Source: Myxococcota bacterium
GTDB taxonomy: Bacteria > Myxococcota_A > UBA9042 > GCA-2863065
Reading direction: 5' to 3'
NCBI GenBank assembly: GCA_047639255.1
Contig: JBLINL010000001.1
Span: forward strand, 1 to 30,281
DNA: 30,281 nucleotides
Positions within the stretch are counted from its first letter, which is position 1. Each line of letters opens with the position of its first letter. The notes under the pieces are model-generated. The model searched no databases, was not told the DNA's origin, and worked only from the letters and a program-made list of their open reading frames with translations. This document shows positions 10,513 to 30,281 of this stretch, piece after piece. The translations under genes were made by a program, and so were the position numbers.

Positions 10513-11114
10513 GGCGCTCCTTGAGGCGTTGCCGGCCTCGACGGGACCCTGGGGACGCCGCTTTCGTCACCCTCATAAACGACCGGATCCTGTTCTGCAC
10601 AACGTGGCAGAGGTGGCACCTTGCCAGGCTTCGCCCGCAGGTCGTGACCCAGTTGCCCTTCGATTGGTCGGGCATTGCCCTTGGTCTGATGAAGCGTCAC
10701 GCTCCACGATTGCCCAGCTGCCAGGGCAAACCGATGGTCGCCCTTTGTGAGGTAGTCAGCGTAAAGCAGAATGTGTTTGACGGACGGAGGAACGAGGAAC
10801 TTCTGCCAGACCGACGTCCCCGGAACCCACTCGCGCGTATATGCCCAGAAGCCGGAGCACCCCGGGTAATCCTGTTTTAGCTGTTCGGCTTCCTGAAACC
10901 AGACCCTCGCAGACAGCTCCTTGAGCCGAGCGACCAGGTCGTCGGAGTACACAAACACGACCGCCACCGCCACCGGGTAGCGCCGATTAGCGTCGTCATT
11001 GACCTGAACAGCCAAGTCCATCGGCTGGGAGGCCAAGCGGACGCGGCTGGCACCGCACCCCATACAAAGGAGCGCAGCGATCACGGTTGTGCTAGTCAGC
11101 AAGTATCTCGACAC
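10509..11114 (-). CDS. tssJ: Type VI secretion outer-membrane lipoprotein, TssJ-like (divergent)
   Basis: Probable GTG start at 11114 with GAGG upstream. Signal-like VSRYLLTSTTVIAALLCMG|C puts Cys at residue 20. The core VQVNDDANRRYPVAVAVVFVYS...LKELSARVWF...EWVPG resembles TssJ-type lipoproteins, and it sits directly before tssK. Confidence 0.75.
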   Translation of the reverse strand: MSRYLLTSTTVIAALLCMGCGASRVRLASQPMDLAVQVNDDANRRYPVAVAVVFVYSDDLVARLKELSARVWFQEAEQLKQDYPGCSGFWAYTREWVPGTSVWQKFLVPPSVKHILLYADYLTKGDHRFALAAGQSWSVTLHQTKGNARPIEGQLGHDLRAKPGKVPPLPRCAEQDPVVYEGDESGVPRVPSRPATPQGAP

Positions 11115-11175: not shown

Positions 11176-14100
11176 CTAGTTATCCACAGGTAGTTCTCTG
11201 ACTCGGGCGGCTTTGGGAGAGGGGCACGTATCCAGGACCTCGGCACGCTGGGGACACTGTCGGGCGTCATGCCTCGCACAGCTGCCAGGCTTCATGCGCA
11301 GCCGAAACTCTACGCCGCCGTGCTGCTGCTCACACTTCCGGGGTTGCCGGTCGTGCTTCACCGACAAGGGCAGATGTACCTCGGCCTTATTAAGCAGCGC
11401 GACCACTGCGTGCGCGCGCGCCCACGCCACCTTGCTGGCCGGGACTCGCAATTGGGCCGCTTCGAACCGCTTGCGCTCCGTCTCCACTGCGTAACCGACG
11501 ACATCGATTCCCTCAATAAGGCTGTTCCCTTTGATGGCGGCCAGCGTCGCGGCCATCTCTCCCAATTGCAACGAGCGCAAGATCCAGTCGGTCTCCTGAG
11601 GACGCGCCGTATCCGTCGGCTTCGGGTCACGCCGATCTGTTTCGGAGAACGGGATCAGCACCGATCCGATCGTCTGGGCGCACTCTGGAAGGCAGTATCC
11701 AATGTTCTTCTCGCGCGCATCGGGGCAACCGTCCTCGTCGCGGTATCCATTGTACGTTTCCGCGCGAAGAGGGCACTGGTCGAAAAGGTCGATGATTGCG
11801 TCGTTGTCGTTGTCCGGATCCGGACATCCATCCGCGTCCTGAAAGTTGTCGACGTCCTCAGGCTCATACGGGCATCGGTCATGTACATCAACCCGGCCGT
11901 CTCCGTCGTGATCGGCGTCTGGACACCCATCTTCGTCGCGGTCCAAGTTGAAGTCTTCGGCAATCCGCGGGCATGCATCTCTCGAGTCGGGGATTCCATC
12001 GCCATCGTCATCCTCATCCGGGCACCCGTCACCATCACGATAGCCGTCGCGGTCCTCCGGCTGGATCGGGCAGCGGTCCGCGAAAGCGAGAACCAAATCA
12101 AGGTCCGGATCCGGCTCTTGTGGAACCCAGACCAGGGACACAAGACCGCGAAACCGCGGCGCCCCACGTCCCAGCAGAATCCCCCCGCCCGCCGCCAGCT
12201 GCAGCTCCAGCTCTCGAAACAGACGAATGCGAGGTCCCGCAACCAGCTCAAGAGTTGTCGCCCGCTTTTCCTGGAACGGCGCCACCAACTCGGTGCGACC
12301 AAACACCTCGACGGCGAGGTCCAGGTAGCCACGCCAGGCATCGACCTCAAACCCGGCACCGAAAGTGAGGTCGTGGTCAACGATCGTATCGAATAATTTG
12401 GATGGATACGTTCGAAACCTGGCGCCTACATTCAGTGCCGTCGTGAAGCGCGGCGCACGGAAATCGAAGATGAAGGTCGTGAGGATGCCGAAGCCGATGT
12501 CCGACCGGAATCCACCATCGTTGCCGGTCGGTGCCGACGCGCCCACCGTCAGTCCCAGTCCCGCGCCACCGGCCCTGTTGTCCAACAGGCGGGTCCGGAC
12601 GCGCAGCACGAGGTCACCCAAACCGGCCCCACTAAAATCGGCCACCCCGGACGGCGTACCGCCCCCCTGCGCCTCGAGCACCAGGGGCAGCGCCATGTCG
12701 ATCTGCACCCAGCCAAACAGACCGACCCCGAGGTTGAGGTCGGCCAGGACCTGCAGCGGCAAAACTTCCTGTGAGAACCCCTCCACATCCAGCCGTACGG
12801 AGTCCGTTTCGACCCGGAATTGGATCGATCCATACGGCTGCAGGTGCGGCCCTGGCGGGGATTGCTCCAGCGTCCAAATCCGGTACGGCCCACCATGGGT
12901 CGTCCAGGTACTCAGATTGACCTTCTCAGCTTCCTGGGCGTCCGCCGGAGCCGGTATCAAGAGTAAGAAGATGCACAGCCACTTGCGGCTACTCCGACTT
13001 CCCAGCATCAGCACCACGAAAAGCAACGTGAACAACATCAGGCCGGCAGCCTCCGCCCCAACGCGCGGCTGGGAGCCGCAGCTCGCAGGCTCGCTCCCCG
13101 AGCCACTCAGTTGCCCGGCTTTGAAGTCATCGCCGCTCAGGTTCGGGTTGGTGCCAGCCGCCACCTCGGCGCCGTCTGGAACGCCGCCGTCGTCGGTGTC
13201 GACCTTCAGCGGGTCCGTCCGCACTCCGTTGACCTCAAAACCATCGAACAGTCCGTCGCCGTCGGTATCCGGGTTCAGCTCGTCGGTATGCGTGCCCGGC
13301 CAGGACGGCACACCGCTGGGCACCGGCTCGTTCTCAGATGGGAGGTGAAATCCGCACTCCTCGATATTGGACAGGCCGTCCGCATCGAAGTCCGCCAAGA
13401 TGTCCTTCGGATCTGTCGGATCGAACTCGCACCACGAGACGCAGAGCGTCACCTTGGCCGTTTCCCAGAGGCTGGTGCAGCTCACGATCGTCTGGCCGAC
13501 TAAAGTCGGGTGTGGGACGCCGCCGACCATTCCATCCTGATTCCAGTCCTCTTCACCGTCGCTACGGCCATCGCCATCGGTGTCGGCACGGCCGGGATCG
13601 GTCGTTGTAGTCGGGTCCCGGTCACTCACGAATGACGTGCAGACCGCCGGCGCCAGCGGGTCTCCCTCGGCGTCTGGGTCTTCCTCGGCGGCGGGGTCAT
13701 CCGGTGTCTCGGCATCCGGAGGGCACTTGTCTGTCCGCGCCCCTCCGGGCGGCGACAGCGTATCCCCGCCAACAACGCTGTTGGCGATGTCCAGGTCCGT
13801 CAGGCCGTACTCGGTTCCATCACAGACGGTATCTCCGTCACTGTCACCGTTGAGCGGGTCCGTTCCCAGAATCATCTCGACTCCGTCGGACAGACCGTCG
13901 TTGTCCGAGTCGGCGTCCACGGGACTGGTCTTCAGATTACATTCCTGTTCATCGCTCAGACCATCGCCGTCGTAGTCCAGATCAACACAATTCAGGGTAC
14001 CGTCCTTGTCGTGATCCAGCACATCGTCCAGCTCGGGCGGCTGGCTGGCCGGGTCCAGCGGATCGTACCCACAGATGATCTCGCCGACGTCGTAAACGCC

Positions 14101-17100
14101 GTCACCGTCATCATCGAGGTCCTGGCAGCCGAGTTCGCCGTCAGAATCGATGTCGGCGAGGCTATCCGCACCCGGTGTCTCGGTATTGTCCTTGGGGTTG
14201 GTACCGCACTTCAATTCCAGGGCATCACTGACCGAGTCGCCGTCGGTATCCAATTCCAGCTCGGCGCACAGCGCGCCGGTGAAGGACGGTGTGGGCGCAC
14301 TGAGCGGATCATCCAGCAAGGTCCCACAGGCGTATTCGTCTCCGTCGCCCCAGCCATCGCCGTCCGAATCTTCCATGGTCGGGTTGCTCTCGCCAGCGTC
14401 CACGATGCCGTTGGAATTCTTGTCCTCAAAGCCATCATTGAGGCCGTCGCCGTCGGTATCGTCATTATCCCAGTCGGTCTTCTTGCACTCTCCCGAGTCC
14501 AGTAGCTGGTAACAGGATCCGTATTCGACTCCATCGCTCAAGTCATCGTCATCGCTGTCGGCCGACCCCGTCTGGTTATTGCCGTCCCCGCCCGCGAGCA
14601 GGAGCTCCAAGCCGTCGCTCAGACCGTCGCCGTCCGTGTCCGGATTGAGCCAGTTCGTCTTGCCCTGCTCTGCCCCGGGAAACTCGTCGACGTTGGGAAT
14701 CGAGTCTCCATCAGCATCTTCATCCGCGCAGTTAAGAATGCCATCGGAGTCGAAGTCCTCTAGAGCCTTGTCCGTGGGTCGGAAGGCCTGGTTGAACTCG
14801 TCCTGACTTTCCCGCGTCTTGGGCAACGGCAGCTTGCCACCCAGCTCCGCCAGGGGCCCGGCCTTGTCTCCCACATAATTACCGGGACAGGCCATGGGCG
14901 GACAGATGCTCAACGCATCCTGACACAGTCGCTCATGCATGTTGGATGCGCCGTCGCCGTCCCAGTCCTGGTCGGCGCACGCTGGGTGCTGCTCGGCGCA
15001 GTCCTCGTCGTCGCAATCCACCTTACCGTCGGCGTCGTCATCCAGCCCATTGGTGCAGGCGAACTCCTGGGCTCCGCAGCTGACGGTAAGTACGACATCA
15101 TCCAGCGCTACGGACGAACATCCGAGATTCTCGATAACCACATGCCGCGTGTCACCGTCATGTACCGGTACAAAGCTCGCTTGGAGGGGTTCCGGGTCCT
15201 GATCGCACTCAGAGGTCGCCTCGATCTTGGTGGTGTCACATTGGGACTCCGGACAGAGGGCGGTGGTGAATTGGTTGAGCGCGAAGCCAGACGCGGTCAG
15301 CTTGAACGCCACGTCGAGGCTGCCTGAGTCATCGAGCTGCTCTGATTCGGTGTCACGATACTCATAGGCAACGATGACGTCCTCGCCACTGCCCGCCTCA
15401 CCGTTCAGACAAGCGAAGTGATCATTGCCCTTCATGATGCTGAGCGTGAAGATGTCACCACATCGGACGATCTTTGGATCGGCGCAGGACCGACCCTCGC
15501 AGCCCTGGCCCGGGTAAACGGTCTCGTTGTCGTCGTTGCAGTCCAAATGGCCCGCGTTGCTCAGCCCGTCCGGCTGGCCCAGCGAGGGACAATCCAGCTG
15601 GAGCCCGGGCGCCGGCATGGTCGCCGAATAACCGTCCTGATCAGTGTCGTTGCACAGGTCCACGCAGGAATGCGTCTGGTTGTCCCCTTCCAGGCTGGAA
15701 CACCCTTTGGCCAGCTCCTTGCACACCACCTTGCACCCTTCGGACGTCTCATTATCAGCGTCACAGGGATTATCGAGATTCTCGGGCATGTCGAACATGG
15801 CCAGAACAGCGAACCACTGCTCGCCGTCCAGGCCGAGCTTGTCTTTGGCGACCTCAAAGCCGCCTTCGCCCTCGCAGTCTTCATCCGTTAGGACATCCAG
15901 CACGTCGCAGACGCCGTCCGAGTCGGTATCGATGGTGTCGTCGTCGACCTTGCCGTTGCAGTCGTCATCCAGCCCGTCGCAGGCCGCTTCGCCGCAGGAA
16001 TTGGTGTCCCCGCGCGTGCCAAGACTGGCTTCCTTACTGAGACACCATTTGGACCAGGCGTTGTTCGCATCCGCGACCTCCGAGCCCAGGAACTGTATCG
16101 TGCGGCCCCCCTTGCCGCCGTCATAGAGACAGGCTTGCTCGGGCCCGGGAAGCTCCGACATCGTCAGCCCGTCTACGAGTTCCTCGGACGCCGCGACATC
16201 TAAGGACTCGACGGTGAGCTGCAGCGAACTCAGCGCGTCTGACGGCCGAGGGCAGTAGAGCGTCCCGTCAAATGCATCGACTCCCAGGGGTGGCTGACCG
16301 TCGGTCGAGAAGTCCAAAACGAGAAAGTCGTCCTTGGCCAACACCCACTCGCCAGTGGCCGGAATCGTAGGCGCACAGTCCGGATGCAGGTCGATAACGT
16401 CATCGTCCCACTGGATTTTCAGACCGGCGCGAACCAACTCGATCTCGGCCCCCGTGCCATTGAACAGCTCCACCCACTGCAACTTGCCGTCGGGGTCGAG
16501 CTTGAACTCCGTAAAGACGAGCCGCGCTCCATCTCCGGTCTGCAGCATGCAGTTGGTCTTGCATCCCGATGATTTGCCACCAGGAATGCCATGATCGCAC
16601 TGCTCACCTTTCTGCGCGACGCCGTCACCGCAGACAAAGCAGTCGTCGTCGTCCCGATCGTTGACGAAGCCGTCGCAGTCCTGGTTGCCCACAATCGCGC
16701 ATTCCGTGAGGGCGCTTTGGGTCGGGACATCCGGGTTGCCGTCGTTGCAGTCGGTCCCCGGGACGACGCTGCTCCACTCGATCGAACAATACCCATCCCC
16801 GTCCGGGTCGTAACAGTCGTCCTGTTCCAACGGCTCCCCTTCGGCGTCCAGCGCCGGGCAAACCACGGACGGACCGAACTGTTCGAACGCCTTCGGGCCG
16901 GCTGGGTCGGCCAGCGTGTCGCCGTCGCTCCAGATTTTGACACTGTGAATCTGGACCGTCGTATTGGCCGCGCCGCCAGCAAAAATCGTAATGTATGCGG
17001 GCGTACCCTCGGGAGGCTTCAGCGGCAGAGTATCCTTCTCCCCCGACCAAAGCTGCGGCTTCAGCCCAAACGGCGTTTGTACGCTGTTTGCGATCGGCTT

Positions 17101-20100
17101 GAACACGACGTGTGGCGGTTCGCCAGCGGGCCCATTTGCACACTCCAGTGGCGTCAACGGCACTTTACTGAGGCAAACGCCGACCATCACAGAGGTCGTC
17201 CCTGCCACCTCGGCCAGCATCACCAACTGTGGCTCCGGCATGCCATCCAAGCCATTGAGGGTAAGCGTGATGCCGGTCGGCTCGCCATCGCTCGTTGTGG
17301 TGATCGTCCCGGCCGGCCAGGGCGGGTCCGCGTCGGGCGTGGTCCTCCACCCCTGCCAGCCGTTGTCAAAGGTGTAGGCGAACTCGCACGGCTGGCAATA
17401 GGCGCCCACCGTCAACTGGGGATCCGCATCATTGCAGTCGGGTTGCGCCCCAAACCCGGCTGGCAGCTGAAGGCCAACGCTCCCGGTCTTGCCGGCAAAC
17501 CCGTCACCGTCCAGGTCCCAGAACTGATCGCAACCCGCCGCGGCACCGTCAAAGCCGGCCACGTTGAGGATGGGGGAAAGCTCCGTGTGGTCGTCGATCG
17601 CCGCGACCAGTTCTTCCAGGCTGTACTTAGCGTTCTCTGCTGTATCGTTGTCCCCGTCCGTGGTCCACCACACGCGCTCCAGGAGCACTTCCGACGAGGC
17701 GGGTACCTGAAACGCCACCGTCAGGGGCTGGGTGTCATCCACGAAGTCATCCAAGCCAGCCAGGCTCAGGGACCCGGTTCCGTCAGCCGTCTTGAGCAGA
17801 ATCTGGGGCGCCAGTGTTTCCTTCGCGCCCACCTCGGCTGCGACGCTCAGCGCATCCCCGTCCGCGCCCGGGTTGACCACCTGGAACTCAAACTCCAAGA
17901 CGGGCTCGCCATCGTGAGCCAGGCTCGCAGCCAGATCAAACTGCGCCTCGTACTCGCCCAGCGTCCACTCCGCCGGGTCGGGCGCGGTAGCCGCGCTCTC
18001 GACCGCACCGCATGGATAGGTCCCGATCACGCGACTGGAACTGGGAAATAGCTCGGCGTTTCCGCCTGACCACGTGAGGCTGGCCACCAACCTGGCGTGG
18101 GAGCGAGCGGTGGTGGTGCCAGCAATGGCGACAGCGAACGCCACCGAACCGGAATTCGAGACCTGGATGCTGCACTCCGGAGCCGAGGCACACCCCGCCA
18201 GCTCGCCGGCGGCCACGATCGATATGTCAAGCGGCTCCTGGCTGCCATCGACCGACTCCAACGCCAACGTCAACGTAGCGTTGTCCAGCGTGTCAAAGCC
18301 GAACAGGTCGTAGGCGACGGAGCCGGGAACATAGCTTCCGGGCAGCCGACTGATGAGCGCGCCACGGGAGGTGGTATCCGATAGCGCTATGCTGACTACG
18401 GGCACCACCGGATCGATCTCTATAGACACCTGGCCAGGCGTGTGCGGGGTGCCGGGATCGTCACTGGACGCTGCGTAGATCGACAATTCAAACGTCCCTG
18501 AAGCCAGCTCAAGTGGCAGCGCGATGTCCAGGGTCGTCGCCTCCGGATCCACCGCACCCGCAGAATCACCGGCCAGGGAACCGGAGAACCATGACAGGTC
18601 ATCGCCCTGGCATGGCGAGGTATGGCCGGGTGGCGGCGTGCTCTCCTGGCCCCACGACAAGCAGGTGGTGTCGCAGCCTACGGTCCCCCCGACTGCGACC
18701 AAAGAGGCACACAACCAGACGTTGTCGATACTCAGGTTCCCATCGTTCCGAATCGTGACCTGCTGGGTCCGGGTTTGGCCGCGCTTGGCTCCCGTGCCCT
18801 CTGCGTTGAGCGCGTCCGCGCCGGCGGTGACGGTCAGGATCGGTTGCGCCCCCTGGACCGTTCCGATTGGAGCATGACAGTTCGCTGCAGATGGACCACC
18901 GTGACCGCAGAGGCAGTCGTCCGCCACGGTATTCCCGCACGCCGAGCTGGTCGCATATCCCCGGCATACAATCTCCGCGGCCGACACGCCCACCGCGATG
19001 GATGGCAGTGGATCCAGGAGTATGAGTGGCAACGTCACCACCGCGGACTCGCCGGGGGCCACCGCCGGCGCCGTTTTTCGAAAGGCTCCGTCTTGGTCCT
19101 GAGTCCACCCGTTGAGAGGCCCATTCTCGGGGTCTAGAGCCGCCAACGGAACGAAGCCCTCGACCGGGGGACCAAATCCCGCGTTGGCAACCACTGTGTA
19201 GGTGGTTTCCTCGTCGGGCTGCGTTGTGGTCGAAGCCGAGCCGCTATTGGTCACGAGGAATTCGCAGTCGAATAAGCTTCCGGGTTCGATGCCGACGAGC
19301 GGGGGCGCCTGGGCCGCCAAAGCCACCTTCGGCGCCGTATTGATTGCGCCCGTCCAGTCGGCGAACTGCTGCGTGCCCAATGAATGCTGGACCACAACCT
19401 GGCTGCTCTCAGGCTGTGCGTCGACCAGCACACTGACGGTGACCGAAGCTTCTGTCTTGCCAGCACTGAGTTCGGGCACGACCAAAGTACAGATGTCGGA
19501 ACTTGAATTGCATACCCAATCCACGTCGTTGATGATCGCGTTGGTCAGACTCAACTGAATCCTGTCGGATGCGGGCGCCTGGTCTCCCAGGTTCTGCAGC
19601 GTGAAAGCGTAGACAAACAGTTCGCCCGCCAATACTTCCGACCCTTGTGGCGTCGTGGGCGCCAGCGTGACCTGATCCGCGCCCGTTATGGGAATGGCGC
19701 AGCCCTGACAGTCGGCGTCTGGCACCGGCGTACCGTTCACCTGCACCGTGACCTTCATCGTCCCGCCGTCGGGCGTCGGGATGAAGGCATCAGCCGTAGC
19801 GCGAAACGACACGGTCTGACTCGCGACGCCTTCTACCTGGACCGAATCCGTACAGCTTGAAGTCGCGTCCGAGCACTCCATCGTGGTGTTGCCCTCGGGC
19901 AATCCGAGTAGTCCACCACCCGCCCCCAGAACCTGCAACGAGACCGGCGCAGCGGCAACCCCCTGGTCTCCGGTATTGCTGATCACCAGCTCCCACGTGA
20001 CCGTGGCGTCCGGCGTCGTAGCCACCTCGCTCGGCGTGGCGACCACGGTAAAGGGGCCAATCCCACCCCCGAGGGCCTGCTCAAACTGTTGGGACAGTAG

Positions 20101-23100: not shown

Positions 23101-26100
23101 CGCCAGCACGCTTGACTTGAACACCGCGTTGGGGTCGATGGTAGCCGAAACAGACACGGCGGACGCGGCAATTGGCCCCGTGTTGGTCACGGTCAGCTTG
23201 AATCCAAGTGTGTCTCCTGGCTCTACCGGGTCCGTTTCGCTGGTTATGACGAAATTGTAGCTCGGTGTCGGAGCCGTGATGTAGGCCTCGGCCACGTTGC
23301 TGTTGTTGGTCTCATTCAGCTCCACCTGGGTCGTACTGACGGCTGCGGTCACGGTCACCTTTTCGAAGTCCGCCGGCAGGGGGGGCACGTCGAGCTTGAG
23401 GGCATCCAGTACGGTGTTGTTTGACGACGGAGCGGCCGGGTCTTCCTGGGGAATATCCGGCAGTGAAATAGTGCATTCGTTTTTCTTGCCAGAGCAGCTG
23501 GCCCAATCACCGATCACGGTAGCAAAGGAGAACGATTTGCCGTTGGACAGAACGCCAGGAATGGTGACCGTGAGCTCCACGTCGTCTGTGGCTGCAGCCT
23601 GCCCTTTGTTGTCCAGGGTGATGTTCCAGGCGCTCTCGGCCACCGGATGCGCGAATCCTATTGGGGCGACGGGGTCGCCCGAAAGTTCGGAAACCACGAG
23701 GTCGGGCGCCTGCCCGGTCGATATCTCCTCTGAACTCGAGTTGTTGGTAGAGTCGAGATCTGGTGCGTCGGTGAGAGCAGAGGAGATGGTCGCGGCCAGC
23801 GTAATGCCACTCTCATTGTTCAAGTCCGCATCGGTGACAACGCTGACGATGCTGTTGCCGGCCTGTCCGGGAGAAAGCGTTCCGAGATTCAGTTGGCACT
23901 TCGAACCGGCAGAGAACACGCCCGCCGTGCTGTAGTCTGTCTCCGACACGCAGCCGCTGAGGCAGCTTGCCTCCGAATCGCAGTCGCAGCAGCTCCACAG
24001 GTTGGACGAGATATCGAATGTCGTGGCTGAGGGCACCTTCAGGTCGATGATCGCGGTCACCGCGTCCTCATTGCCGAAGTTTGTATAGTCGATGAGCCAG
24101 TTGAGCGTCTGCCCCGGCTGGGCTGAGCCGAGCGGCTTGGTGATCGCCACCGACAAGTCAGGACCAGGCTGAATATTGAGGTCCACAAATTTAACGTTGT
24201 TGCCTGAGTTCAGCTCAGCCTCGCCGTTGAGGCTTGTCCCGGTAACGCGCCCGGTCACACGAATCGAAGTCGCGGAGGACGCGAGCTGCCCCTCTACGAT
24301 CTTCAGCGCCACGACCTTTTGGGTAGGGGAACCCGTAGTTGGCACCAAATTCAACGCGAGGGTGCATATCGTCTCTGCGGCGAGGGCCACTGGGGGATTG
24401 CCGACGTCGCAGTTCCCAATCGAGTTCTCCAACACGGCCACGCCCCGGGGCAGAGTGACTTCAAGGGTGGCGTTGTCCATATTGTTACAACCCTTGTTCT
24501 CGTACGTGAAGGTCACGGTGAACGGGTCTTCCATGACGACCGTCTGACTCCCGTCATCCTCTGTCGTCGCGTCACTCAAGGCGCTCAGCTCAAGGTCGCC
24601 ACCGGCCGCAAGGTCGATGACTGCCGCCTTCACGTTCTGCGCCGTCTGATTCCCGTCGTTGACCTGGTCGTCAACCCTGGCGCTATAGGTGGCCGTAGCA
24701 TCACAGCCCGGAATCGGATCTTTGACTCGAAGCGCAAAGTCGATCCCATCACTGGTCTGGTTGTCTGCCGCCACGCTCTGGACCACCGCGAAGTGACACT
24801 TGTTGCCCGCGCACTGCCACCCATCCGAGCTATTGGTCGGGTCAAACGTCGCGTTGCCCAGCGGGTCTAGAGTCTGCGTAACGACCAGTCCGGTAGCCGG
24901 TGCCGTCCCTGAGTTCCGGTATTTGACAGTCGTCTGGATCAACTCGCCGGGCCCTGGCTTCACCGTCGGCAGGCCGTCCACCTGGATGACCAGATCCGGG
25001 CCACAGCCCGGACCACTGTTGGTCGGGATGTAGATGCAGCCCTGTGACGCGTCACAGACGTTCACCGTGCAGGGATCGGTCTCCAACTCCGAGCACTTAG
25101 TGGCATCGCTGATGCATGCAAAGACGCACTGAGTCCCTGGCTCCGATCCCACGGCGTCGACATATCCCCCATTGGTGCCATTGCCAACGGCGTTGCAGGC
25201 GCAGGAGAACCCCGGTTCAGAGTTTGCACAGTTGGCGTTGGCATGACAGTTGTTGCCCCCGCCAGCCCCGCACTCGTCGACGTCCACACATATGTTGGCT
25301 GTGCAGACGAACCCGGCTTGGCAGTCAGCCACGTCGTCACAGTCGCCATCCTTACCAGACACAGCCTTGCAGAGTTCATCGATGCAGGTGCCCTTGCAGT
25401 TGACGTCCTTATCGGACGAGGTGCCTCCCACGCACGCCGCACCGACCGCCACGCGACATACCCCGCCGTCACAGGTGCGGGACGCTCCGCAGTCGGCGTC
25501 GTCCTCAATGTCGCACACATTGCCCAGACCGACCGACGACGTGCAGAAGCCGCCGACGCAGGTGCCTATGCAGCTTGTGTTCTTCTCAGCGTCGCCAACC
25601 CCCTGACAGCTTAAGCCGTTGTCGAAGCCGCATTGCGCTGCGCCCGTCGAACCCACCGTACAAACCGTATTGGTGTCGGCGCAGTCATCGGCCGCCTGAT
25701 TTACGTCGCAGGGCTGTCCGAACGGTGCGGGTAGAGCGCACTCCGAAGCGATGCAGGTATTGATGCAGTCGGTGTTGGCGTCACAGCCGGCACCATCGTC
25801 ACGAATGCAGACACCGCTCGGACAGGAGATATCCGCCTGCGATGCACAGTCGGCCACGTCATCGCAGGGACCAGAGTCAAGAGACTTGGAAGCGCACGTT
25901 ACGCCGATGCACTGCGCTTCACACTGAGAATCCAGGGTGCAACTTTGTCCGTTCTGGCGCAGACATTCTGCAGGTGCGCCCACGCAGGAATGGTTGGCTT
26001 CGCAGTCGTCGTCATCGTCTGGGGCCGCGCTAGAATCGCACTCCCCGTTGGTCCCACTCAGCGCGGTACAGGCCCCACCCCGGCAGGTGAAAACACACTC

Positions 26101-29100
26101 GGAATTCATGGTGCAGGAACCGCCGCTCTTCTTGCACTTTGCTTCGATGCACAGGTTGCTCGTTTCGCAGTCGTCATCGTCCGCCACGTCGCAATCCTGG
26201 TTGGTAGTGGCCTTGGCAGAGCACTTGTCGCCAATGCATGCGCCTCCGCTACACTCGGCATTATCGTCGCAATCCTCGCCGTTGGCTTTGAGGCACTGCT
26301 TTACTTCCGGCAGGCACGTGGGCGCGCCGGCGCAATCACAGATGTGTTGGGCCACGCAGTCACTCGTCTCGTCACAGATCTCGTTGGTACCGCCGAGCGA
26401 CGCGCAGACCGAATGGATGCAGGTGTTGACGCATTCATCGTTGGTGTCGCAGGCACCGGCATCATCCAGCAAGCATTGCGGACCGCTGTCGACGACCGTG
26501 CACGTATGTCCATCAGCGCAGTCGCTGGTATCGGGAACGGTTTCGTTGTCGCACAGTTGCCCAGTCTCCGACTTAGCAGCACATTGACTACCGATACAGG
26601 TATTGGTGCAATCTGTATTGCCCGAGCAGGATTCGCCATTCTTGGACTTGCACGTCCCGGCGCTGCATTCAAGGGTGCTATCGGCGCAGTCGTCATCGTC
26701 GTCAGCATCGCATTGGGAGTCGAGAGCCGAAGCCTGGCCGCACAATTCTCCGATGCAGACGTTAGCGCACTGATCGTTTGCGCTACACGACTCATCGTCC
26801 TTCAGTAGACACGTTTTTTGTGGACCAGCGGAACACGTATGCACGCTGGTGCAGTCCTCGTCCTGGTCACAGGAAGCGAGGGTTCCGGATTGGGCAACGC
26901 AGAAGGACCCAATGCATACGTTGAGGCACTGGGCATTATCATTACAGGCCAGTCCATCGTTCCGCTTACATGTGTTGCTCAGCGAAGCGCAGGTGTAATC
27001 GTCGATGCAGTGTGCGTCGACCCCGGCATCGCAGGCACCATCGAGTCCCGCGCGTGGCGCACAATTCCCGCCAATGCACACGGCGACGCATTCGTTGTCA
27101 CCCTGTGGACAGTCCTCCTCGTCTACCTTGCGGCACTGACCGGCTTGGCAGGCCTGGTTGACGGGACAGTCCAGGGTATCGTCGCAAGTCCCCAAGAGGA
27201 CGGGACTGGTCACGCATGTGTTGGCCACGCACGTTTCGACACAGCTGTTATTCTTGTCCGCCGCTAAGACGCCCTGACACGTATTTCCGAGCGGAAAGCC
27301 ACAGGTCCCACCCGTCCCACATACCACACCGGCGCCAGAACCGGAGCAGTCAGCATCAGCGTCGCAGGGCTGACCAAAGCTCGAGAACGGACCGCAGAAG
27401 GAGTTGATACAGGTGTTCTGGCAGTCCGTGTCATCATTGCATGCCAACGTGTCCTTGTACCGACACGCCCCAGTCGCGCAGACCGTGTTGAGTGAATCGG
27501 CGCAGTCAGTGTCATCTGCGCAAAAGTCACCGACTCCGGACCCACTACCGCACTTGTCCGCGACGCATTGATTGGTATTGCACTGGCTGTCGCTCTCGCA
27601 GACCTGACCGTCGTTCCTGAGGCACTCCCCTCCGGTGCAGGTATGCACGCTGAGGCAGTCATCGTCGAGGTCGCAGTTGGCGTTCGTATCAGACAGCGGC
27701 GCACATGATGAGTTGATGCAAGTCGCGGCACATTCGGGGTTGCCGGTGCAACCTTCCCCATCGTTCTTGAGACAGGTGGACCCGACACACGACAGCGTGG
27801 GAAGGGCACAGTCAGAATCCTCGTCACAAACGCCATTAAAACCCGACAAGGGCCCGCACGTCAGGGTGCCGTCGGGCGGTTGGTTCGGGAGGCAAGCGCT
27901 GGACTCGCACTGGGCGTTGGAGGTGCAACTCTGCGCATTAACCAGCAGGCATTTCTCTGACACGCAGTTGTGACCGGCCTGACAATCTGTCGTTACGTTG
28001 CAGCCACCGAGTGTGCCCGAATCACCTCCGCACTGGCCGGCCAGGCATTGATTCTGGCATTGGTCATTTCCTGTACAGGCTTGACCATCAACCAGGCCGC
28101 AGGTATTGGCCGTGCAATTGTGGTCGACTTCGCAATCCGCGATCTCGTCACACGAACCCTGGGTGCCCGAGATGTTGCTGCAAGTACCGACGGTCGCGCC
28201 GCTCGGTACGACACACACGTTGAGGCACTGCGAATTATCGCTACACGCCAACCCGTTGTCGCGGAAACACTGACCAGCCGAGCACGTGTGACCGCCAACG
28301 CAATCAGCGTCCTCGTCGCAGGCCCCGAATGTCGGTGAGTGGATCGCGCACTCGGCAATGAGGCACACGTCAAAGATGCATTGGTCATTGCCGGTGCAGG
28401 CCTGGCCGTTGTTCTTAAGGCAGGTATCGGACGCAGAACAGGAATGGGTGTCCACGCAGTCTCCGGAATCACCCGCGTCGCAACTCTGTGTCGTGGTGGC
28501 GCGCGCAGCGCACGAGGAGTTGATGCAGCTGTTGACGCCCGGACCGCTACACTCCGTGTTGGCCACACAGGCATTGCCGACAGAAACAAGACAAACGTCG
28601 CCCTCGCAGATGTGCCCCAACATACAGATCGGGTCGATGTCACAGGCCCCACCGGAAGAGACGCGACAGGAGCCCCCATCGCAGGTGTAGCCCGCGATGC
28701 AGTCGCCGATGTCGCAGGCAAACCCGGCGACGAGCTTCGGGGCGCATTCGGTGCCAATGCACGTATTGGACTCCGGGTCAGCACAGTCCGTGTTGACGCC
28801 ACAGGTCCCTCCCAGCGACGCCCTGCACACGGTCGCCTCACATTCGAAGCCGGGGGAGCAGTCCGCCGAGTCTTCGCAACCCTGGTCCTGCCCTGTCTTC
28901 GGCACACAAACCGATAGGACGCACGTGTTGGTACAGTCCGAATCGGCCGAGCACCCCTGAGCGTCCGGCAGGCCACACGTCTGCCCGAAGCACTCCGAGT
29001 CCGTAACACTGCAGTCTTCAAGCTGGTCGCATGCTTCGCCGGCGCCCGACAGCCCCGCGCACGCGTCGATGATGCAGCGACCGCTAAAGCAATCGCCGTT

Positions 29101-30281
29101 CGCGCCGGGCGCGCATGACACGCCATCGTTCTTCAGGCACGTTGTTCCGCCGCACGTATGCGCCGCGACGCAGTCCCCGCTGTCTCCCGAATCGCAGGTG
29201 AACCCCGTGCTCACCTTCGCCGCGCAGCTGCCCCCGATGCATGAGTTGGAGGCAGCCGTCGCGCAGTCGGCATTGACACTGCAGGCCGTCGCCAGCGACG
29301 CCCGGCACACCAGGGAATCGCACGTGTAGCCCGTCGCGCAGTCGTCGGTGGCGTCACAGTTCTGGCCCAGCCCCGTCTGGGTCACACAGGTCAGCCCCAC
29401 GCAGGTGTTCGTGCAATCGGCGTTGCCACCGCACACCTGGCCGTCCGAAAGGCCGCAGGTCAAGCCGATACACTCAGACCCCGAAACGCTGCAGTCCGCA
29501 GCCTCGTCGCACGGACTCGCGCCGCCCGACAGAACCGCGCAGGTGTCGGTGATACACGTTCCCGTGCAATCGAGGTTGACGCTGCATGGCCCGCCGGCCG
29601 GAAGCCCGCAGACGTTCGAGGCGCATTCCGAGTTCGCCACGCTGCAGTCTTCAAGCTCGTCGCATGCTTCGCCGGCGCCCGACAGCCCCGCGCACGCGTC
29701 GATGATGCAGCGACCGCTAAAGCAATCGTCGTTCGTGCCGGGCGCGCATGACACGCCATCGTTCTTCAGGCACGTCGTGCCGCCGCACGTATGCGCCGCG
29801 ACGCAGTCCCCGCTGTCTCCCGAATCGCAGGTGAACCCCGTGCTCACTTTCGCCGCGCAGCTGCCCCCGATGCATGAGTTGGAGGCAGCCGTCGCGCAGT
29901 CGGCATTGACGCTGCAGGCCGTCGCCAGCGACGCCCGGCACACCAGGGAATCGCACGTGTAGCCCGTCGCGCAGTCGTCGGTGGCGTCACAGTTCTGGCC
30001 CAGCCCCGTCTGGGTCACACAGGTCAGCCCCACGCAGGTGTTCGTGCAATCGGCGTTGCCACCGCACACCTGGCCGTCCGAAAGGCCGCAGGTCAAGCCG
30101 ATACACTCAGACCCCGAAACGCTGCAGTCCGCAGCCTCGTCGCACGGACTCGCGCCGCCCGACAGAACCGCGCAGGTGTCGGTGATACACGTTCCCGTGC
30201 AATCGAGGTTGACGCTGCATGGCCCGCCGGCCGGAAGCCCGCAGACGTTCGAGGCGCATTCCGAGTTCGCCACGCTGCAGT
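11176..30281 (-). CDS. Giant Cys-rich/Ig-repeat surface adhesin fused to a TraB/OmpA-like outer-membrane barrel; 5'-truncated (>6365 aa)
   Basis: A single uninterrupted frame runs from beyond 30281 to the TAG at 11176-11178. The listed start (GTG 30273) is a Val inside a repeat. The modular domain series is listed in the following features. Confidence 0.92.
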   Translation of the reverse strand, partial: CSVANSECASNVCGLPAGGPCSVNLDCTGTCITDTCAVLSGGASPCDEAADCSVSGSECIGLTCGLSDGQVCGGNADCTNTCVGLTCVTQTGLGQNCDATDDCATGYTCDSLVCRASLATACSVNADCATAASNSCIGGSCAAKVSTGFTCDSGDSGDCVAAHTCGGTTCLKNDGVSCAPGTNDDCFSGRCIIDACAGLSGAGEACDELEDCSVANSECASNVCGLPAGGPCSVNLDCTGTCITDTCAVLSGGASPCDEAADCSVSGSECIGLTCGLSDGQVCGGNADCTNTCVGLTCVTQTGLGQNCDATDDCATGYTCDSLVCRASLATACSVNADCATAASNSCIGGSCAAKVSTGFTCDSGDSGDCVAAHTCGGTTCLKNDGVSCAPGANGDCFSGRCIIDACAGLSGAGEACDQLEDCSVTDSECFGQTCGLPDAQGCSADSDCTNTCVLSVCVPKTGQDQGCEDSADCSPGFECEATVCRASLGGTCGVNTDCADPESNTCIGTECAPKLVAGFACDIGDCIAGYTCDGGSCRVSSGGACDIDPICMLGHICEGDVCLVSVGNACVANTECSGPGVNSCINSSCAARATTTQSCDAGDSGDCVDTHSCSASDTCLKNNGQACTGNDQCIFDVCLIAECAIHSPTFGACDEDADCVGGHTCSAGQCFRDNGLACSDNSQCLNVCVVPSGATVGTCSNISGTQGSCDEIADCEVDHNCTANTCGLVDGQACTGNDQCQNQCLAGQCGGDSGTLGGCNVTTDCQAGHNCVSEKCLLVNAQSCTSNAQCESSACLPNQPPDGTLTCGPLSGFNGVCDEDSDCALPTLSCVGSTCLKNDGEGCTGNPECAATCINSSCAPLSDTNANCDLDDDCLSVHTCTGGECLRNDGQVCESDSQCNTNQCVADKCGSGSGVGDFCADDTDCADSLNTVCATGACRYKDTLACNDDTDCQNTCINSFCGPFSSFGQPCDADADCSGSGAGVVCGTGGTCGFPLGNTCQGVLAADKNNSCVETCVANTCVTSPVLLGTCDDTLDCPVNQACQAGQCRKVDEEDCPQGDNECVAVCIGGNCAPRAGLDGACDAGVDAHCIDDYTCASLSNTCKRNDGLACNDNAQCLNVCIGSFCVAQSGTLASCDQDEDCTSVHTCSAGPQKTCLLKDDESCSANDQCANVCIGELCGQASALDSQCDADDDDDCADSTLECSAGTCKSKNGESCSGNTDCTNTCIGSQCAAKSETGQLCDNETVPDTSDCADGHTCTVVDSGPQCLLDDAGACDTNDECVNTCIHSVCASLGGTNEICDETSDCVAQHICDCAGAPTCLPEVKQCLKANGEDCDDNAECSGGACIGDKCSAKATTNQDCDVADDDDCETSNLCIEAKCKKSGGSCTMNSECVFTCRGGACTALSGTNGECDSSAAPDDDDDCEANHSCVGAPAECLRQNGQSCTLDSQCEAQCIGVTCASKSLDSGPCDDVADCASQADISCPSGVCIRDDGAGCDANTDCINTCIASECALPAPFGQPCDVNQAADDCADTNTVCTVGSTGAAQCGFDNGLSCQGVGDAEKNTSCIGTCVGGFCTSSVGLGNVCDIEDDADCGASRTCDGGVCRVAVGAACVGGTSSDKDVNCKGTCIDELCKAVSGKDGDCDDVADCQAGFVCTANICVDVDECGAGGGNNCHANANCANSEPGFSCACNAVGNGTNGGYVDAVGSEPGTQCVFACISDATKCSELETDPCTVNVCDASQGCIYIPTNSGPGCGPDLVIQVDGLPTVKPGPGELIQTTVKYRNSGTAPATGLVVTQTLDPLGNATFDPTNSSDGWQCAGNKCHFAVVQSVAADNQTSDGIDFALRVKDPIPGCDATATYSARVDDQVNDGNQTAQNVKAAVIDLAAGGDLELSALSDATTEDDGSQTVVMEDPFTVTFTYENKGCNNMDNATLEVTLPRGVAVLENSIGNCDVGNPPVALAAETICTLALNLVPTTGSPTQKVVALKIVEGQLASSATSIRVTGRVTGTSLNGEAELNSGNNVKFVDLNIQPGPDLSVAITKPLGSAQPGQTLNWLIDYTNFGNEDAVTAIIDLKVPSATTFDISSNLWSCCDCDSEASCLSGCVSETDYSTAGVFSAGSKCQLNLGTLSPGQAGNSIVSVVTDADLNNESGITLAATISSALTDAPDLDSTNNSSSEEISTGQAPDLVVSELSGDPVAPIGFAHPVAESAWNITLDNKGQAAATDDVELTVTIPGVLSNGKSFSFATVIGDWASCSGKKNECTISLPDIPQEDPAAPSSNNTVLDALKLDVPPLPADFEKVTVTAAVSTTQVELNETNNSNVAEAYITAPTPSYNFVITSETDPVEPGDTLGFKLTVTNTGPIAASAVSVSATIDPNAVFKSSVLAAIDWSGCNGTKCDSDPRDFLPGVATEMVLPLAIKSSVTKGAETIATTASFTVDSQPFEATKSVVLTASPQLQVVYIATPDPAQAGDSVTWTASVSNAGNQDATATVRVGVDESVLSVPGGQVWSLVSGSAEPKLYERTVSLNAQASQDLLLQTTVTNPILAGTEVVTSSAQLWDGVSTTEPPDHTDNASVVLDASPDLSMTSRLLYGPENTVPALEWTTGTVIEPKSALDLEVTVAQADGQTQRPGTVTVTIDIPQHTEVDEPVETEWVCPGGESTCSIVVDLGSPVKKLRLKVVDTLPLPSAGETSVTATFTGSVTHSDNDGEDANPADNIAASMMVPLAGAPELRIKSALSDPSSSVSQGVALSYTITVENTGTQASVGDKLWLIVPADVTALPTTDWSCDSGTPNVVCETTLGPVGGPAVDLATATLPAQVSDSLLPETTEIIAYAVIGETKPTVGPDPYPCDAGCSVIDTSTSTSLKLSVVTGQTTVVPGGTVTLSIETENKGDGSITGKVEVAFGSDVVTLVEGQSSWTGSAGVFESETIIATADEPAVTLSLIVRVTDPVGVGVESLDPSVQFLVLSSVEAEAELAAPIGITASPEVVVSYPGTTDNATIELQPADNVTLAWTVTNDASAKQAAQPTFTLTVPSYTRYVGVEEGWQCPDGVDAGDVCTLALSDTIAPGQSVTPNVTTTLEVLSPLVYDADNATVVITAFDDNLTFSSDERVLDFDATPALFFRETGVQFENYPPGGSVQYILEYRNYKAGSPAEHAKQSDRLTLRATFDETLADVAPEFATDWVTDPGQPNTVKRTLSRLFPSEVYLDEGFALVLKESLPGGTNQLQVTFTLEDDQGHAANESVVVTVGVNAAATLKLDFEPYDQAAPPASTTYERTLTVTNEATFTVNGVQLLICTPAHDVKNGGVTVTLQSNDNETGGTMVQATPGSFECDGRLIDLGVDGTMEKQEVLHYDLAYALTDTFAAEGGGQITGLVKALDQDNATLLSQQFEQALGGGIGPFTVVATPSEVATTPDATVTWELVISNTGDQGVAAAPVSLQVLGAGGGLLGLPEGNTTMECSDATSSCTDSVQVEGVASQTVSFRATADAFIPTPDGGTMKVTVQVNGTPVPDADCQGCAIPITGADQVTLAPTTPQGSEVLAGELFVYAFTLQNLGDQAPASDRIQLSLTNAIINDVDWVCNSSSDICTLVVPELSAGKTEASVTVSVLVDAQPESSQVVVQHSLGTQQFADWTGAINTAPKVALAAQAPPLVGIEPGSLFDCEFLVTNSGSASTTTQPDEETTYTVVANAGFGPPVEGFVPLAALDPENGPLNGWTQDQDGAFRKTAPAVAPGESAVVTLPLILLDPLPSIAVGVSAAEIVCRGYATSSACGNTVADDCLCGHGGPSAANCHAPIGTVQGAQPILTVTAGADALNAEGTGAKRGQTRTQQVTIRNDGNLSIDNVWLCASLVAVGGTVGCDTTCLSWGQESTPPPGHTSPCQGDDLSWFSGSLAGDSAGAVDPEATTLDIALPLELASGTFELSIYAASSDDPGTPHTPGQVSIEIDPVVPVVSIALSDTTSRGALISRLPGSYVPGSVAYDLFGFDTLDNATLTLALESVDGSQEPLDISIVAAGELAGCASAPECSIQVSNSGSVAFAVAIAGTTTARSHARLVASLTWSGGNAELFPSSSRVIGTYPCGAVESAATAPDPAEWTLGEYEAQFDLAASLAHDGEPVLEFEFQVVNPGADGDALSVAAEVGAKETLAPQILLKTADGTGSLSLAGLDDFVDDTQPLTVAFQVPASSEVLLERVWWTTDGDNDTAENAKYSLEELVAAIDDHTELSPILNVAGFDGAAAGCDQFWDLDGDGFAGKTGSVGLQLPAGFGAQPDCNDADPQLTVGAYCQPCEFAYTFDNGWQGWRTTPDADPPWPAGTITTTSDGEPTGITLTLNGLDGMPEPQLVMLAEVAGTTSVMVGVCLSKVPLTPLECANGPAGEPPHVVFKPIANSVQTPFGLKPQLWSGEKDTLPLKPPEGTPAYITIFAGGAANTTVQIHSVKIWSDGDTLADPAGPKAFEQFGPSVVCPALDAEGEPLEQDDCYDPDGDGYCSIEWSSVVPGTDCNDGNPDVPTQSALTECAIVGNQDCDGFVNDRDDDDCFVCGDGVAQKGEQCDHGIPGGKSSGCKTNCMLQTGDGARLVFTEFKLDPDGKLQWVELFNGTGAEIELVRAGLKIQWDDDVIDLHPDCAPTIPATGEWVLAKDDFLVLDFSTDGQPPLGVDAFDGTLYCPRPSDALSSLQLTVESLDVAASEELVDGLTMSELPGPEQACLYDGGKGGRTIQFLGSEVADANNAWSKWCLSKEASLGTRGDTNSCGEAACDGLDDDCNGKVDDDTIDTDSDGVCDVLDVLTDEDCEGEGGFEVAKDKLGLDGEQWFAVLAMFDMPENLDNPCDADNETSEGCKVVCKELAKGCSSLEGDNQTHSCVDLCNDTDQDGYSATMPAPGLQLDCPSLGQPDGLSNAGHLDCNDDNETVYPGQGCEGRSCADPKIVRCGDIFTLSIMKGNDHFACLNGEAGSGEDVIVAYEYRDTESEQLDDSGSLDVAFKLTASGFALNQFTTALCPESQCDTTKIEATSECDQDPEPLQASFVPVHDGDTRHVVIENLGCSSVALDDVVLTVSCGAQEFACTNGLDDDADGKVDCDDEDCAEQHPACADQDWDGDGASNMHERLCQDALSICPPMACPGNYVGDKAGPLAELGGKLPLPKTRESQDEFNQAFRPTDKALEDFDSDGILNCADEDADGDSIPNVDEFPGAEQGKTNWLNPDTDGDGLSDGLELLLAGGDGNNQTGSADSDDDDLSDGVEYGSCYQLLDSGECKKTDWDNDDTDGDGLNDGFEDKNSNGIVDAGESNPTMEDSDGDGWGDGDEYACGTLLDDPLSAPTPSFTGALCAELELDTDGDSVSDALELKCGTNPKDNTETPGADSLADIDSDGELGCQDLDDDGDGVYDVGEIICGYDPLDPASQPPELDDVLDHDKDGTLNCVDLDYDGDGLSDEQECNLKTSPVDADSDNDGLSDGVEMILGTDPLNGDSDGDTVCDGTEYGLTDLDIANSVVGGDTLSPPGGARTDKCPPDAETPDDPAAEEDPDAEGDPLAPAVCTSFVSDRDPTTTTDPGRADTDGDGRSDGEEDWNQDGMVGGVPHPTLVGQTIVSCTSLWETAKVTLCVSWCEFDPTDPKDILADFDADGLSNIEECGFHLPSENEPVPSGVPSWPGTHTDELNPDTDGDGLFDGFEVNGVRTDPLKVDTDDGGVPDGAEVAAGTNPNLSGDDFKAGQLSGSGSEPASCGSQPRVGAEAAGLMLFTLLFVVLMLGSRSSRKWLCIFLLLIPAPADAQEAEKVNLSTWTTHGGPYRIWTLEQSPPGPHLQPYGSIQFRVETDSVRLDVEGFSQEVLPLQVLADLNLGVGLFGWVQIDMALPLVLEAQGGGTPSGVADFSGAGLGDLVLRVRTRLLDNRAGGAGLGLTVGASAPTGNDGGFRSDIGFGILTTFIFDFRAPRFTTALNVGARFRTYPSKLFDTIVDHDLTFGAGFEVDAWRGYLDLAVEVFGRTELVAPFQEKRATTLELVAGPRIRLFRELELQLAAGGGILLGRGAPRFRGLVSLVWVPQEPDPDLDLVLAFADRCPIQPEDRDGYRDGDGCPDEDDDGDGIPDSRDACPRIAEDFNLDRDEDGCPDADHDGDGRVDVHDRCPYEPEDVDNFQDADGCPDPDNDNDAIIDLFDQCPLRAETYNGYRDEDGCPDAREKNIGYCLPECAQTIGSVLIPFSETDRRDPKPTDTARPQETDWILRSLQLGEMAATLAAIKGNSLIEGIDVVGYAVETERKRFEAAQLRVPASKVAWARAHAVVALLNKAEVHLPLSVKHDRQPRKCEQQHGGVEFRLRMKPGSCARHDARQCPQRAEVLDTCPSPKAARVRELPVDN
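11296..11665 (-). other. Degenerate OmpA-C-like domain of the giant protein
   Basis: IPF...LAAIKGNSLIEGIDVVGYAVETE...VAWARAHAVVALL...HGGVEFRL aligns by eye with F...V.IEGHTD...LSxxRAxAVxxYL...NRRVEF. It follows barrel plus TSP3 repeats, as in myxobacterial OmpA/TraB proteins. Confidence 0.6.
11718..12120 (-). repeat. Four 33-aa thrombospondin type-3-like Ca-binding repeats
   Basis: DPDLD...DRCPIQPEDRDGYRDGDGCPD; DDDGDGIPDSRDACP...DEDGCPD; DHDGDGRVDVHDRCP...DADGCPD; DNDNDAIIDLFDQCP...DEDGCPD. Confidence 0.85.
12121..12936 (-). other. Outer-membrane beta-barrel domain (TraB/myxobacterial OmpA-family type)
   Basis: About 270 aa of alternating amphipathic strands (LADLNLGVGLFGWVQIDMALP, GLGDLVLRVRTRLL, ALNVGARFR, LDLAVEVFG, LELVAGPRIRL), ending GRGAPRFRGLVSLVWVP. 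Confidence 0.8.
12937..13110 (-). other. Internal MYXO-CTERM-like segment immediately followed by a signal-peptide-like segment
   Basis: GQLSGSGSEPAS-C-GSQPRVGAEAAGLMLFTLLFVVLMLG-SRSSRK-WLCIFLLLIPAP-ADA|QEAEK. The Cys codon is at 13078-13080 and the AxA site ends at 12937. Confidence 0.65.
13140..15060 (-). repeat. Array of about 20 DxDxDG-type (bacterial TSP3-like) Ca-binding motifs
   Basis: Repeated DTDGDGLSDGLE, DSDGDGWGDGDE, DSDNDGLSDGVE, DTDGDGLFDGFE and DTDDGGVPDGAE motifs. Confidence 0.8.
15995..16530 (-). other. Lamin-tail-like (LTD) beta-sandwich domain
   Basis: RLVFTEFKLDPDGKLQWVELFNGTGAEIEL...WC...SLGTRGDTNSC matches the usual LVITE...EWxELxN...GTPGxxN pattern. Confidence 0.6.
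16549..16635 (-). repeat. Myxococcus-type Cys-rich repeat unit
   Basis: VCGDGVAQKGEQCDHG...GCKTNC. It is flanked by DxDGDG...DCND metal-binding-type motifs (about 16640-16810, 17400-17520, 15500-15650) and by CDGLDDDCNGKVDD (about 15940-15981). Confidence 0.7.
18010..25002 (-). repeat. About 17 divergent DUF11/CARDB-like Ig modules
   Basis: The pattern PDLxVxxx...PGxxVTxTxTVxNxG recurs about every 125-140 aa (e.g. GPDLSVAITKPLGSAQPGQTLNWLIDYTNFG, PQLQVVYIATPDPAQAGDSVTWTASVSNAG, APELRIKSALSD...LSYTITVENTG). Confidence 0.75.
25127..25290 (-). other. Calcium-binding EGF-like module
   Basis: CVDVDECGAGGGNNCHANANCANSEPGFSCACN...YV...GTQC. Confidence 0.8.
25290..30281 (-). repeat. Cys-rich repeat region (about 25-aa 4-Cys units, paired into 51-56-aa 8-Cys modules)
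   Basis: Continuous C-x5-C-x3..7-C-x4-C pattern over about 1660 aa, continuing past the right edge. Confidence 0.9.
29009..30281. repeat. Near-identical 633-bp in-frame tandem duplication (at least 2 copies, third beginning at the edge)
   Basis: 29009-29641 vs 29642-30274 show 7 substitutions by manual comparison. 29279-29648 is identical to 29912-30281. A third copy begins at 30275. Confidence 0.95.

Follow-up and report, generated by a model that had tools for sequence, protein, structure and literature searches.

A giant surface-protein gene lies immediately before the membrane-complex genes of a type VI secretion system (T6SS) in the stretch of DNA analysed here, which raises the question of whether the protein serves the secretion system, as a receptor that finds its targets, or is an adhesin in its own right with a T6SS module behind it. 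The stretch (hereafter, the window) is 30,281 nucleotides long and is the whole of contig C1 of an uncultured Myxococcota metagenome-assembled genome (MAG G000; 5.97 Mb in 1039 contigs, 81% complete); the public runs that hold its sequence are DNA runs only, from ice metagenomes. The original prediction was that a surface protein laid out like the myxobacterial TraA and TraB, but unrelated to them, captures or discriminates target cells and positions the TssJLM channel at the contact site, forming a T6SS with a built-in targeting receptor.

The giant reading frame and its junction with tssJ

The giant ORF is encoded on the minus strand and runs for 6367 aa without a stop (11176-30281), remaining open at the contig end, so that the visible part starts without the true N-terminus, which lies beyond it. 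The frame ends with a TAG stop codon at 11178-11176, and 61 nt separate this codon from the next start on the same strand (GTG 11114). Read along that strand, the features of the window are the following.

25030..30281, minus strand: Cys-rich repeats, including a 633-bp tandem repeat; residues 1 to ~1750 of the visible part (translation, Cys counts)
17380..25002, minus strand: run of Ig-like DUF11/CARDB-type repeats forming the stalk; residues ~1760-4300 (~2500 aa)
13135..17082, minus strand: conserved pre-tag region, Cys/Asp-rich, with bacterial TSP3 calcium-binding repeats; residues ~4400-5715
12937..13080, minus strand: internal in-frame junction of tag and signal-peptide-like stretch; residues 5734-5781
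11980..12936, minus strand: TraB-like outer-membrane beta-barrel module (NCBIfam exchanger_TraB NF033763; Pfam Phenol_MetA_deg 5.2e-5)
11176..11979, minus strand: TSP3 repeats (Pfam TSP_3), divergent OmpA-like C-terminal domain and stop codon
11115..11175, minus strand: intergenic gap with a GAGG-type ribosome-binding site before GTG 11114 (sequence)
10509..11114, minus strand: tssJ, outer-membrane lipoprotein of 201 aa with invariant lipobox Cys20 (fold match, synteny)
9181..10512, minus strand: tssK, baseplate (Pfam T6SS_VasE 5.7e-38)
8417..9256, minus strand: tssL, DotU only (Pfam DotU 1.3e-32, residues 70-256)
4287..8420, minus strand: tssM (Pfam IcmF-related_N 2.9e-43)
2980..4290, minus strand: tssA (Pfam ImpA_N 7.7e-36)

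The start codon of tssL is uncertain, since the listed ORF overlaps tssK. The contig end falls within the 633-bp tandem repeat, which is in frame and 100% identical between copies (window 29009-30281) and is absent from all other contigs of the bin; because the contig breaks in this repeat and no other contig carries it, the 5' end of the giant gene is unrecoverable from the assembly.

The junction itself is well supported. A unitig from sample X1 spans 9000-11422 with 0 differences to the window, bridging the adhesin and tssJ, and one from sample X2 spans 10759-12475 with 1 SNP (T>C at 11146, inside the gap). As unitigs from two samples cross the junction, the adjacency is not an assembly chimera, and the prediction of a surface-protein gene of more than 6365 aa ending 61 nt before tssJ on the same strand is confirmed. 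No indels were reported across 9000-16000 in the unitig comparison. A mis-assembly of the repeat-rich metagenome, creating either the adjacency or the single long frame, could be suspected from the perfect 633-bp repeat at the contig end and from the many partial or chimeric unitigs that map to the TSP3 region (13200-16000). However, unitigs of two samples span 10759-12475 and 12632-13609 without indels, an independent MAG (G005) keeps the same gene order, and the same fused cassette recurs in dozens of unrelated assemblies; an artefact is thus essentially excluded. Between 13200 and 16000, many short unitigs join different TSP3 repeats or continue into unlike sequence. We attribute these to several paralogous giant genes in the community, and read-level variation in this region therefore does not represent alleles of this gene.

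A terminator in the 61-nt gap had been named beforehand as evidence against a link between the two genes, and none had been evident. A scan for terminator-like hairpins likewise detected none in the gap, the nearest lying inside tssJ, and the RNA of the gap folds no better than shuffled sequences (z = 0.41). Given the short gap and the lack of a terminator, co-transcription of the giant gene and tssJ is plausible, and read-through from the former into the latter is a possible candidate mode of expression. A scan for the sigma-54 consensus returned weak matches only, and an alignment of the regions upstream of tssJ in five loci contained no conserved block.

TraAB-like architecture and the internal tag

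From an N-terminal visible part with about 30 Cys per 200 aa, the protein continues into the Ig-like stretch (Pfam DUF11 4.2e-11, CARDB and HYDIN/VesB Ig-like; NCBIfam TIGR01451) and from there into the pre-tag region (TSP3_bac of Pfam at 1.7e-11; in NCBIfam, the acidic double-disulfide repeat and part of CglD). In residues 1-2000, no Cys-repeat family of NCBIfam or Pfam reached E<=0.1, and the Cys-rich repeats of the TraA type (TIGR04201, NCBIfam) were not detected at the same threshold. The pre-tag region is the part held in common with other giant homologues and is 35-41% identical to Myxococcota proteins of 3500-6500 aa. An LTD domain was found in the G005 orthologue.

The C-terminal 600 aa match the TraB model NF033763 over positions 7-370 of 522 (E 5.5e-29). 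The score of 100.5 bits does not reach the curated cut-off of 700 bits, indicating that the barrel module is a homologue of TraB and not an equivalog or orthologue. The OmpA-like domain of the window copy is strongly diverged and has no Pfam match, while the aligned domain of the G005 orthologue matches OmpA at 2.7e-6. Of the TraB layout, a signal-like segment (ending ADA|Q), a barrel and TSP_3 are seen in the window copy, and an OmpA match in the G005 orthologue but not in this copy. The expectation of a giant surface-adhesin-type protein with a TraAB-like layout is therefore borne out (stalk, Cys/TM/basic tag and TraB-like barrel-TSP3-OmpA-like end), whereas the view that the adhesin is unrelated to TraA and TraB has to be abandoned, the barrel module being a TraB homologue.

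In M. xanthus, TraA comprises a signal peptide, a variable domain, a Cys-rich stalk and MYXO-CTERM, and TraB a signal peptide, a barrel, TSP3 repeats and a C-terminal OmpA domain that is peptidoglycan-binding (PMC12045341). The order of modules in the window ORF matches that of the pair: putatively exported Cys-rich stalk, Cys/TM/basic tag, signal-peptide-like segment, barrel, TSP3 and OmpA-like domain, the barrel module being detectably homologous to TraB. The differences are considerable. The window stalk exceeds 5700 aa, more than eight times the 648 processed residues of TraA (37-684), and is built of DUF11/CARDB and TSP3_bac repeats instead of TIGR04201 repeats; both halves belong to a single ORF; and the OmpA-like domain is degenerate. 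Any counterpart of the N-terminal PA14-like variable domain of TraA would lie beyond the contig end. TraA and TraB act as a receptor pair for outer-membrane exchange, and the likeness of the window ORF to them is one of sequence and module order.

At the junction of the two halves, a hydrophobic helix lies between Cys5734 and the basic RSSRK, a tripartite pattern that resembles MYXO-CTERM (TIGR03901; residues 5734-5766). The pattern was read by eye; the tag occupies an internal position and has no HMM match at E<=0.1. Directly after RSSRK, with no stop between, follows a second hydrophobic stretch, signal-peptide-like and ending in the ADA|Q noted above, and an internal ATG lies within the junction at 13008. 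Unitigs of four runs cover this junction without an indel (X1 11396-13740, X2 12632-13609, X3 and X4). By eye, the same in-frame cassette was recognized in 18 of 18 giant homologues, 11 of which are also caught by a strict regular expression; the tag region corresponds to 10100-10480 in locus L196 and 1000-1320 in locus L090. The support from four runs and the recurrence in giant homologues show that the fusion is not a sequencing or assembly error. The 18 include proteins of the cultured species Archangium gephyra (P0156, 4997 aa) and Stigmatella aurantiaca (P0165, 5149 aa). Accordingly, the internal Cys/TM/basic tag with its signal-peptide-like segment is a trait of the family, and the fused TraAB-like architecture is widespread; no description of it was found in the papers searched, among them a myxosortase preprint.

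Among close orthologues, stalk and barrel are encoded separately in some cases and as a fused ORF in others. The G003 orthologue is split: a stop follows an RRR tail, and after 42 nt a 599-aa TraB-like gene begins, which places the same tripartite pattern at the true C-terminus of the stalk protein. In G007, a member of the same genus, stalk and barrel are fused in a frame of 6033 aa. The M. xanthus traA and traB genes overlap by 4 bases (PMC3325183), so that fusion into one frame is a small step.

Other giant Myxococcota proteins, annotated as 'OmpA family / tandem-95 repeat / Ig-like domain-containing' and including many of 3500-6500 aa from MAGs, make up the family of the window ORF. The closest of the full-length homologues is P0123 (5574 aa). 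They have in common the C-terminal third (TSP3_bac region, Cys/TM/Arg tag, signal-like segment, barrel, TSP3 and OmpA; 30-41% identical) and differ in their N-terminal stalks, which are cadherin-like tandem-95, DUF4215 or EGF. Unlike the window ORF, none of the giant proteins whose context was read has a T6SS beside it.

The giant ORF is a member of a large, multi-copy family of Myxococcota surface adhesins in which a TraA-like stalk and a TraB-like anchor are joined in one frame. Full-length homologues have an N-terminal signal peptide, and the precursor would be exported by Sec. As in TraA, the tag could then undergo cleavage and lipidation, with signal peptidase removing the second hydrophobic segment; alternatively, translation of the barrel module might begin at the internal ATG (13008). 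The barrel would insert in the outer membrane and carry the stalk, as modelled for TraA on TraB, and the assembled protein presumably functions in adhesion to, or recognition of, cells or surfaces.

The T6SS module and its upstream neighbours

Four of the five T6SS genes are recognized by Pfam; the fifth, the lipoprotein gene predicted to be tssJ, is not. Pfam and NCBIfam scans of the 201-aa protein returned nothing, and a profile search of a TssJ-like alignment against PDB sequences yielded nothing relevant; the fold search alone succeeded. For an AlphaFold model with a pLDDT of 86.6, the top PDB matches in Foldseek were 3zhn, 6ixh_A, 4a1r and 3rx9 (probability 1.00; TM by target 0.59-0.74), structures that represent TssJ1, SciN, Lip and TssJ in the membrane core complex. 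In an alignment of the window protein with 33 homologues from T6SS loci, the lipobox Cys does not vary. A TssJ homologue is located immediately 5' of tssK in 76 of the best 80 T6SS loci of this subtype. The modelled fold and the position before tssK together identify the lipoprotein as TssJ, as had been predicted. Members of this TssJ family, with no Pfam or NCBIfam match and a clear TssJ fold, are found in the Acidobacteriota, Alphaproteobacteria, Nitrospinota, Gemmatimonadota, Bacteroidota and Myxococcota (loci L010-L089).

The remainder of the system is only partly present in the window. A different contig of the bin encodes TssF, and no TssC was detected in G000, whose genome is incomplete. 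Downstream of tssA there are no tssB or tssC genes, while in the genus of G007, G003 and G006 (g4) TssC lies within about 1 kb of tssA; in their place the window has an ORF of 151 aa on the opposite strand (2493-2948) and a protein of 697 aa that contains an HELGH motif (390-2483), neither of which has a homologue in the best 80 T6SS loci. TssL lacks a peptidoglycan-binding domain, and no TagL/TagN-like gene is visible in the window besides the degenerate OmpA-like end of the giant ORF.

These observations on TssL suggest one way in which the giant protein could contribute to the T6SS, namely by supplying through its OmpA-like end the peptidoglycan anchoring otherwise given by TagL or TagN. 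Loci with a DotU-only TssL, as here, often carry an OmpA-type accessory (PMC13584744), and the OmpA domain is detectable in the G005 orthologue. We nevertheless regard this role as very improbable: the window OmpA-like domain has no Pfam match and is strongly diverged, the other loci of the family and 79 of the best 80 loci of the subtype do without such a neighbour, and a gene of 19 kb is hardly a plausible source for an anchor of 100 aa.

The adhesin and the T6SS are distributed very differently. Within the class, 40 of 41 genomes have the barrel, with a maximum of 16 copies (7 in G000), and 5 of 41 have TssK, all within the window's family. Of 85 loci with a TraB-like barrel, 80 of them metagenomic and 5 fetched individually, none has tssJ, tssK, tssL, tssM or tssA within 10 kb. 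A metagenome scan with the C-terminal module recovered only more distant relatives (full-module matches at <=40% identity), none with T6SS genes, and the genes that follow giant homologues elsewhere are unrelated. Conversely, among the best 80 T6SS loci of the subtype, drawn from one-genome-per-species data across many phyla, a single locus has a TraB-like barrel upstream of tssJ (L011, the same locus as L006, from G005). Linkage of barrel and T6SS thus amounts to 1 of the best 80 subtype loci, 0 of 85 barrel loci and 2 of the 5 family loci whose upstream side is readable, and the recurrent linkage that marks T6SS accessory genes of the TasL/TslA class was not found. The adhesin family is, in general, independent of the T6SS, as well as common and multi-copy in the class, and the conserved T6SS module begins at tssJ. 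Because this module is complete on its 5' side without the adhesin, and occurs nearly everywhere without it, the adhesin is most likely not an integral part of the T6SS.

Within the family, the arrangement recurs once. In G005, which belongs to another genus, a giant ORF is followed by tssJ, K, L and M in the same order and strand, although TssK is only 38% identical to that of the window and the barrel 46%. At such divergence, unrelated genes often do not keep their order. The adjacency is missing in 3 of the 5 family loci with a readable upstream side. Upstream of tssJ, divergent TPR, AAA and FHA genes are found in G007; in G006 there is neither a giant ORF on the same strand nor a barrel among the matches listed; and in GCA_047620165.1 a dihydroxy-acid dehydratase gene precedes tssJ. 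The T6SS locus of G003 is cut by a contig end and was left out of the readable contexts. A TssK search added two further family-level relatives, one on a 1.8-kb contig and the other being GCA_047620165.1, without the adhesin. Conservation of the adjacency in relatives, on which the original prediction depended, therefore holds in part: it is kept in 1 of 4 readable relatives (G005) and absent in G006, G007 and GCA_047620165.1. The order adhesin-tssJKLMA is specific to this lineage, being common to the window's genus and one other genus of the family (genera g1 and g6).

The orthologous adhesin is nonetheless present in relatives that lack the adjacency. In genus g4 (G007, G003 and G006), it is located on a different contig from the T6SS, and in G007 an M16 peptidase gene comes after it. 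The barrel tree unites the two T6SS-adjacent copies as a pair (93/84) inside one orthogroup (100/99), the other members of which are G007_C10, G003_C154 and G006_C718. The tree of TssK groups the family as a clade (100/99), in which G000 branches first and G005 clusters with loci without the adjacency (97/96). From these trees, the arrangement is old, having either been lost at least once or arisen before the split of g1 and g6. The TssK clade of the family stands apart from the TssK clade of the Polyangia, among sequences of other phyla, and in the class this T6SS was found only in the window's own family; this distribution suggests that the family acquired its T6SS through transfer.

Members of the orthogroup come from exactly the five family genomes with TssK. 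Among the family genomes without TssK, G001 and G002 have their best barrel matches outside the orthogroup, and the only match of G004 is far weaker (E 8.6e-23) and was left off the tree. The co-occurrence of orthogroup and TssK within the family is suggestive only: it amounts to three lineages with both and three with neither, mutually related, and is thus not statistically meaningful.

The adhesin in relation to the T6SS

The explanation that we favour, and hold to be reasonably probable, is that the giant ORF encodes a TraAB-like adhesin that acts in adhesion or recognition on its own, with the T6SS module placed behind it through the inherited gene order of the lineage. Functional coupling of the two is a candidate, and a doubtful one; what the data establish is a real TraAB-like giant adhesin with a lineage-specific T6SS linkage.

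In the coupled case, the TraAB-like orthogroup would have been recruited in g1 and g6 as a cis-encoded accessory, expressed with tssJKLM, and the adhesin would tether or select neighbour cells for productive firing of the T6SS, as TasL or TslA do elsewhere. Several observations are consistent with this. The order and strand are the same in two genera only about 40% identical in TssK, the orthogroup is found only in the five T6SS-bearing genomes of the family, and the 61-nt gap is without a terminator. There are also precedents, as TasL, TslA and TagM1 are target-recognition factors encoded in T6SS clusters (PMC13584744). We nevertheless consider recruitment of this kind unlikely. The T6SS of genus g4 and its orthologous adhesin are on separate contigs, and GCA_047620165.1 has the dihydroxy-acid dehydratase gene in the place of the adhesin; 79 of the best 80 T6SS loci of the subtype lack such a neighbour; the co-occurrence extends across few related lineages; and a stalk of more than 5700 aa would probably keep cells far apart unless folded back.

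The sequence before tssJ in the relatives points in the same direction. The gap of G005 is longer (107-182 nt) and AT-richer than that of the window and contains, by eye, TTGACC-N16-TGATGC, resembling TTGACG-N16/17-TGATAC/GAAATA before tssJ in G007 and G006. These promoter-like pairs are situated 35-50 nt before the likely tssJ start (L006 4527-4610, L007 ~11370-11410 and L008 ~9560-9600; G005, G006 and G007), and hint, as weak by-eye evidence, that tssJKLM in G005 has a putative promoter of its own. The pattern TTGACS-N15-18-KRAWRC is absent from the window gap. A model of the mature forms of the TraB-like module and TssJ as a complex (score 0.02, mark 0.32) counts neither for nor against an interaction.

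Like TasL (from T6SS2 of Vibrio fischeri), TslA and TagM1, the window adhesin is a large envelope protein encoded beside T6SS structural genes, and as these proteins promote cell-cell contact for T6SS killing (PMC13584744, PMC9040878), it could by analogy do the same. Accessory surface proteins encoded beside a T6SS are a known theme, of which the adjacency is a variant with thin support. In contrast to these precedents, the family of the window adhesin is overwhelmingly unlinked to T6SSs, and no sequence or domain relationship between it and any of the three was found: TasL, a lipoprotein, contains a fibronectin-III-like domain, and TslA resides in the periplasm.

The stronger form of the proposal, in which the adhesin of g1 and g6 is the first gene of the membrane-complex operon, binds a neighbour and decides where or whether TssJLM assembles and fires, we judge to be less probable again. 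A T6SS with a built-in targeting receptor, as originally predicted, is not supported, given the occurrence of the barrel in 40 of 41 genomes against 5 of 41 for TssK, the absence of T6SS genes within 10 kb in all 85 barrel loci, and the single case among the best 80 T6SS loci. With an adhesin family that is widespread and mostly unlinked to T6SSs, such a receptor is possible but not shown.

Were the coupling real, it would represent a third independent answer to the problem of target-finding by contact-dependent weapons, after TasL and TslA, and would tie kin-recognition hardware of the TraAB type to T6SS attack. Apart from the adhesin, the locus reveals a widespread T6SS subtype headed by a TssJ family that Pfam does not detect. 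The main value of the finding is descriptive: across the Myxococcota, including cultured species, TraA-like and TraB-like partners are very often fused as single giant ORFs with an internal sorting tag.
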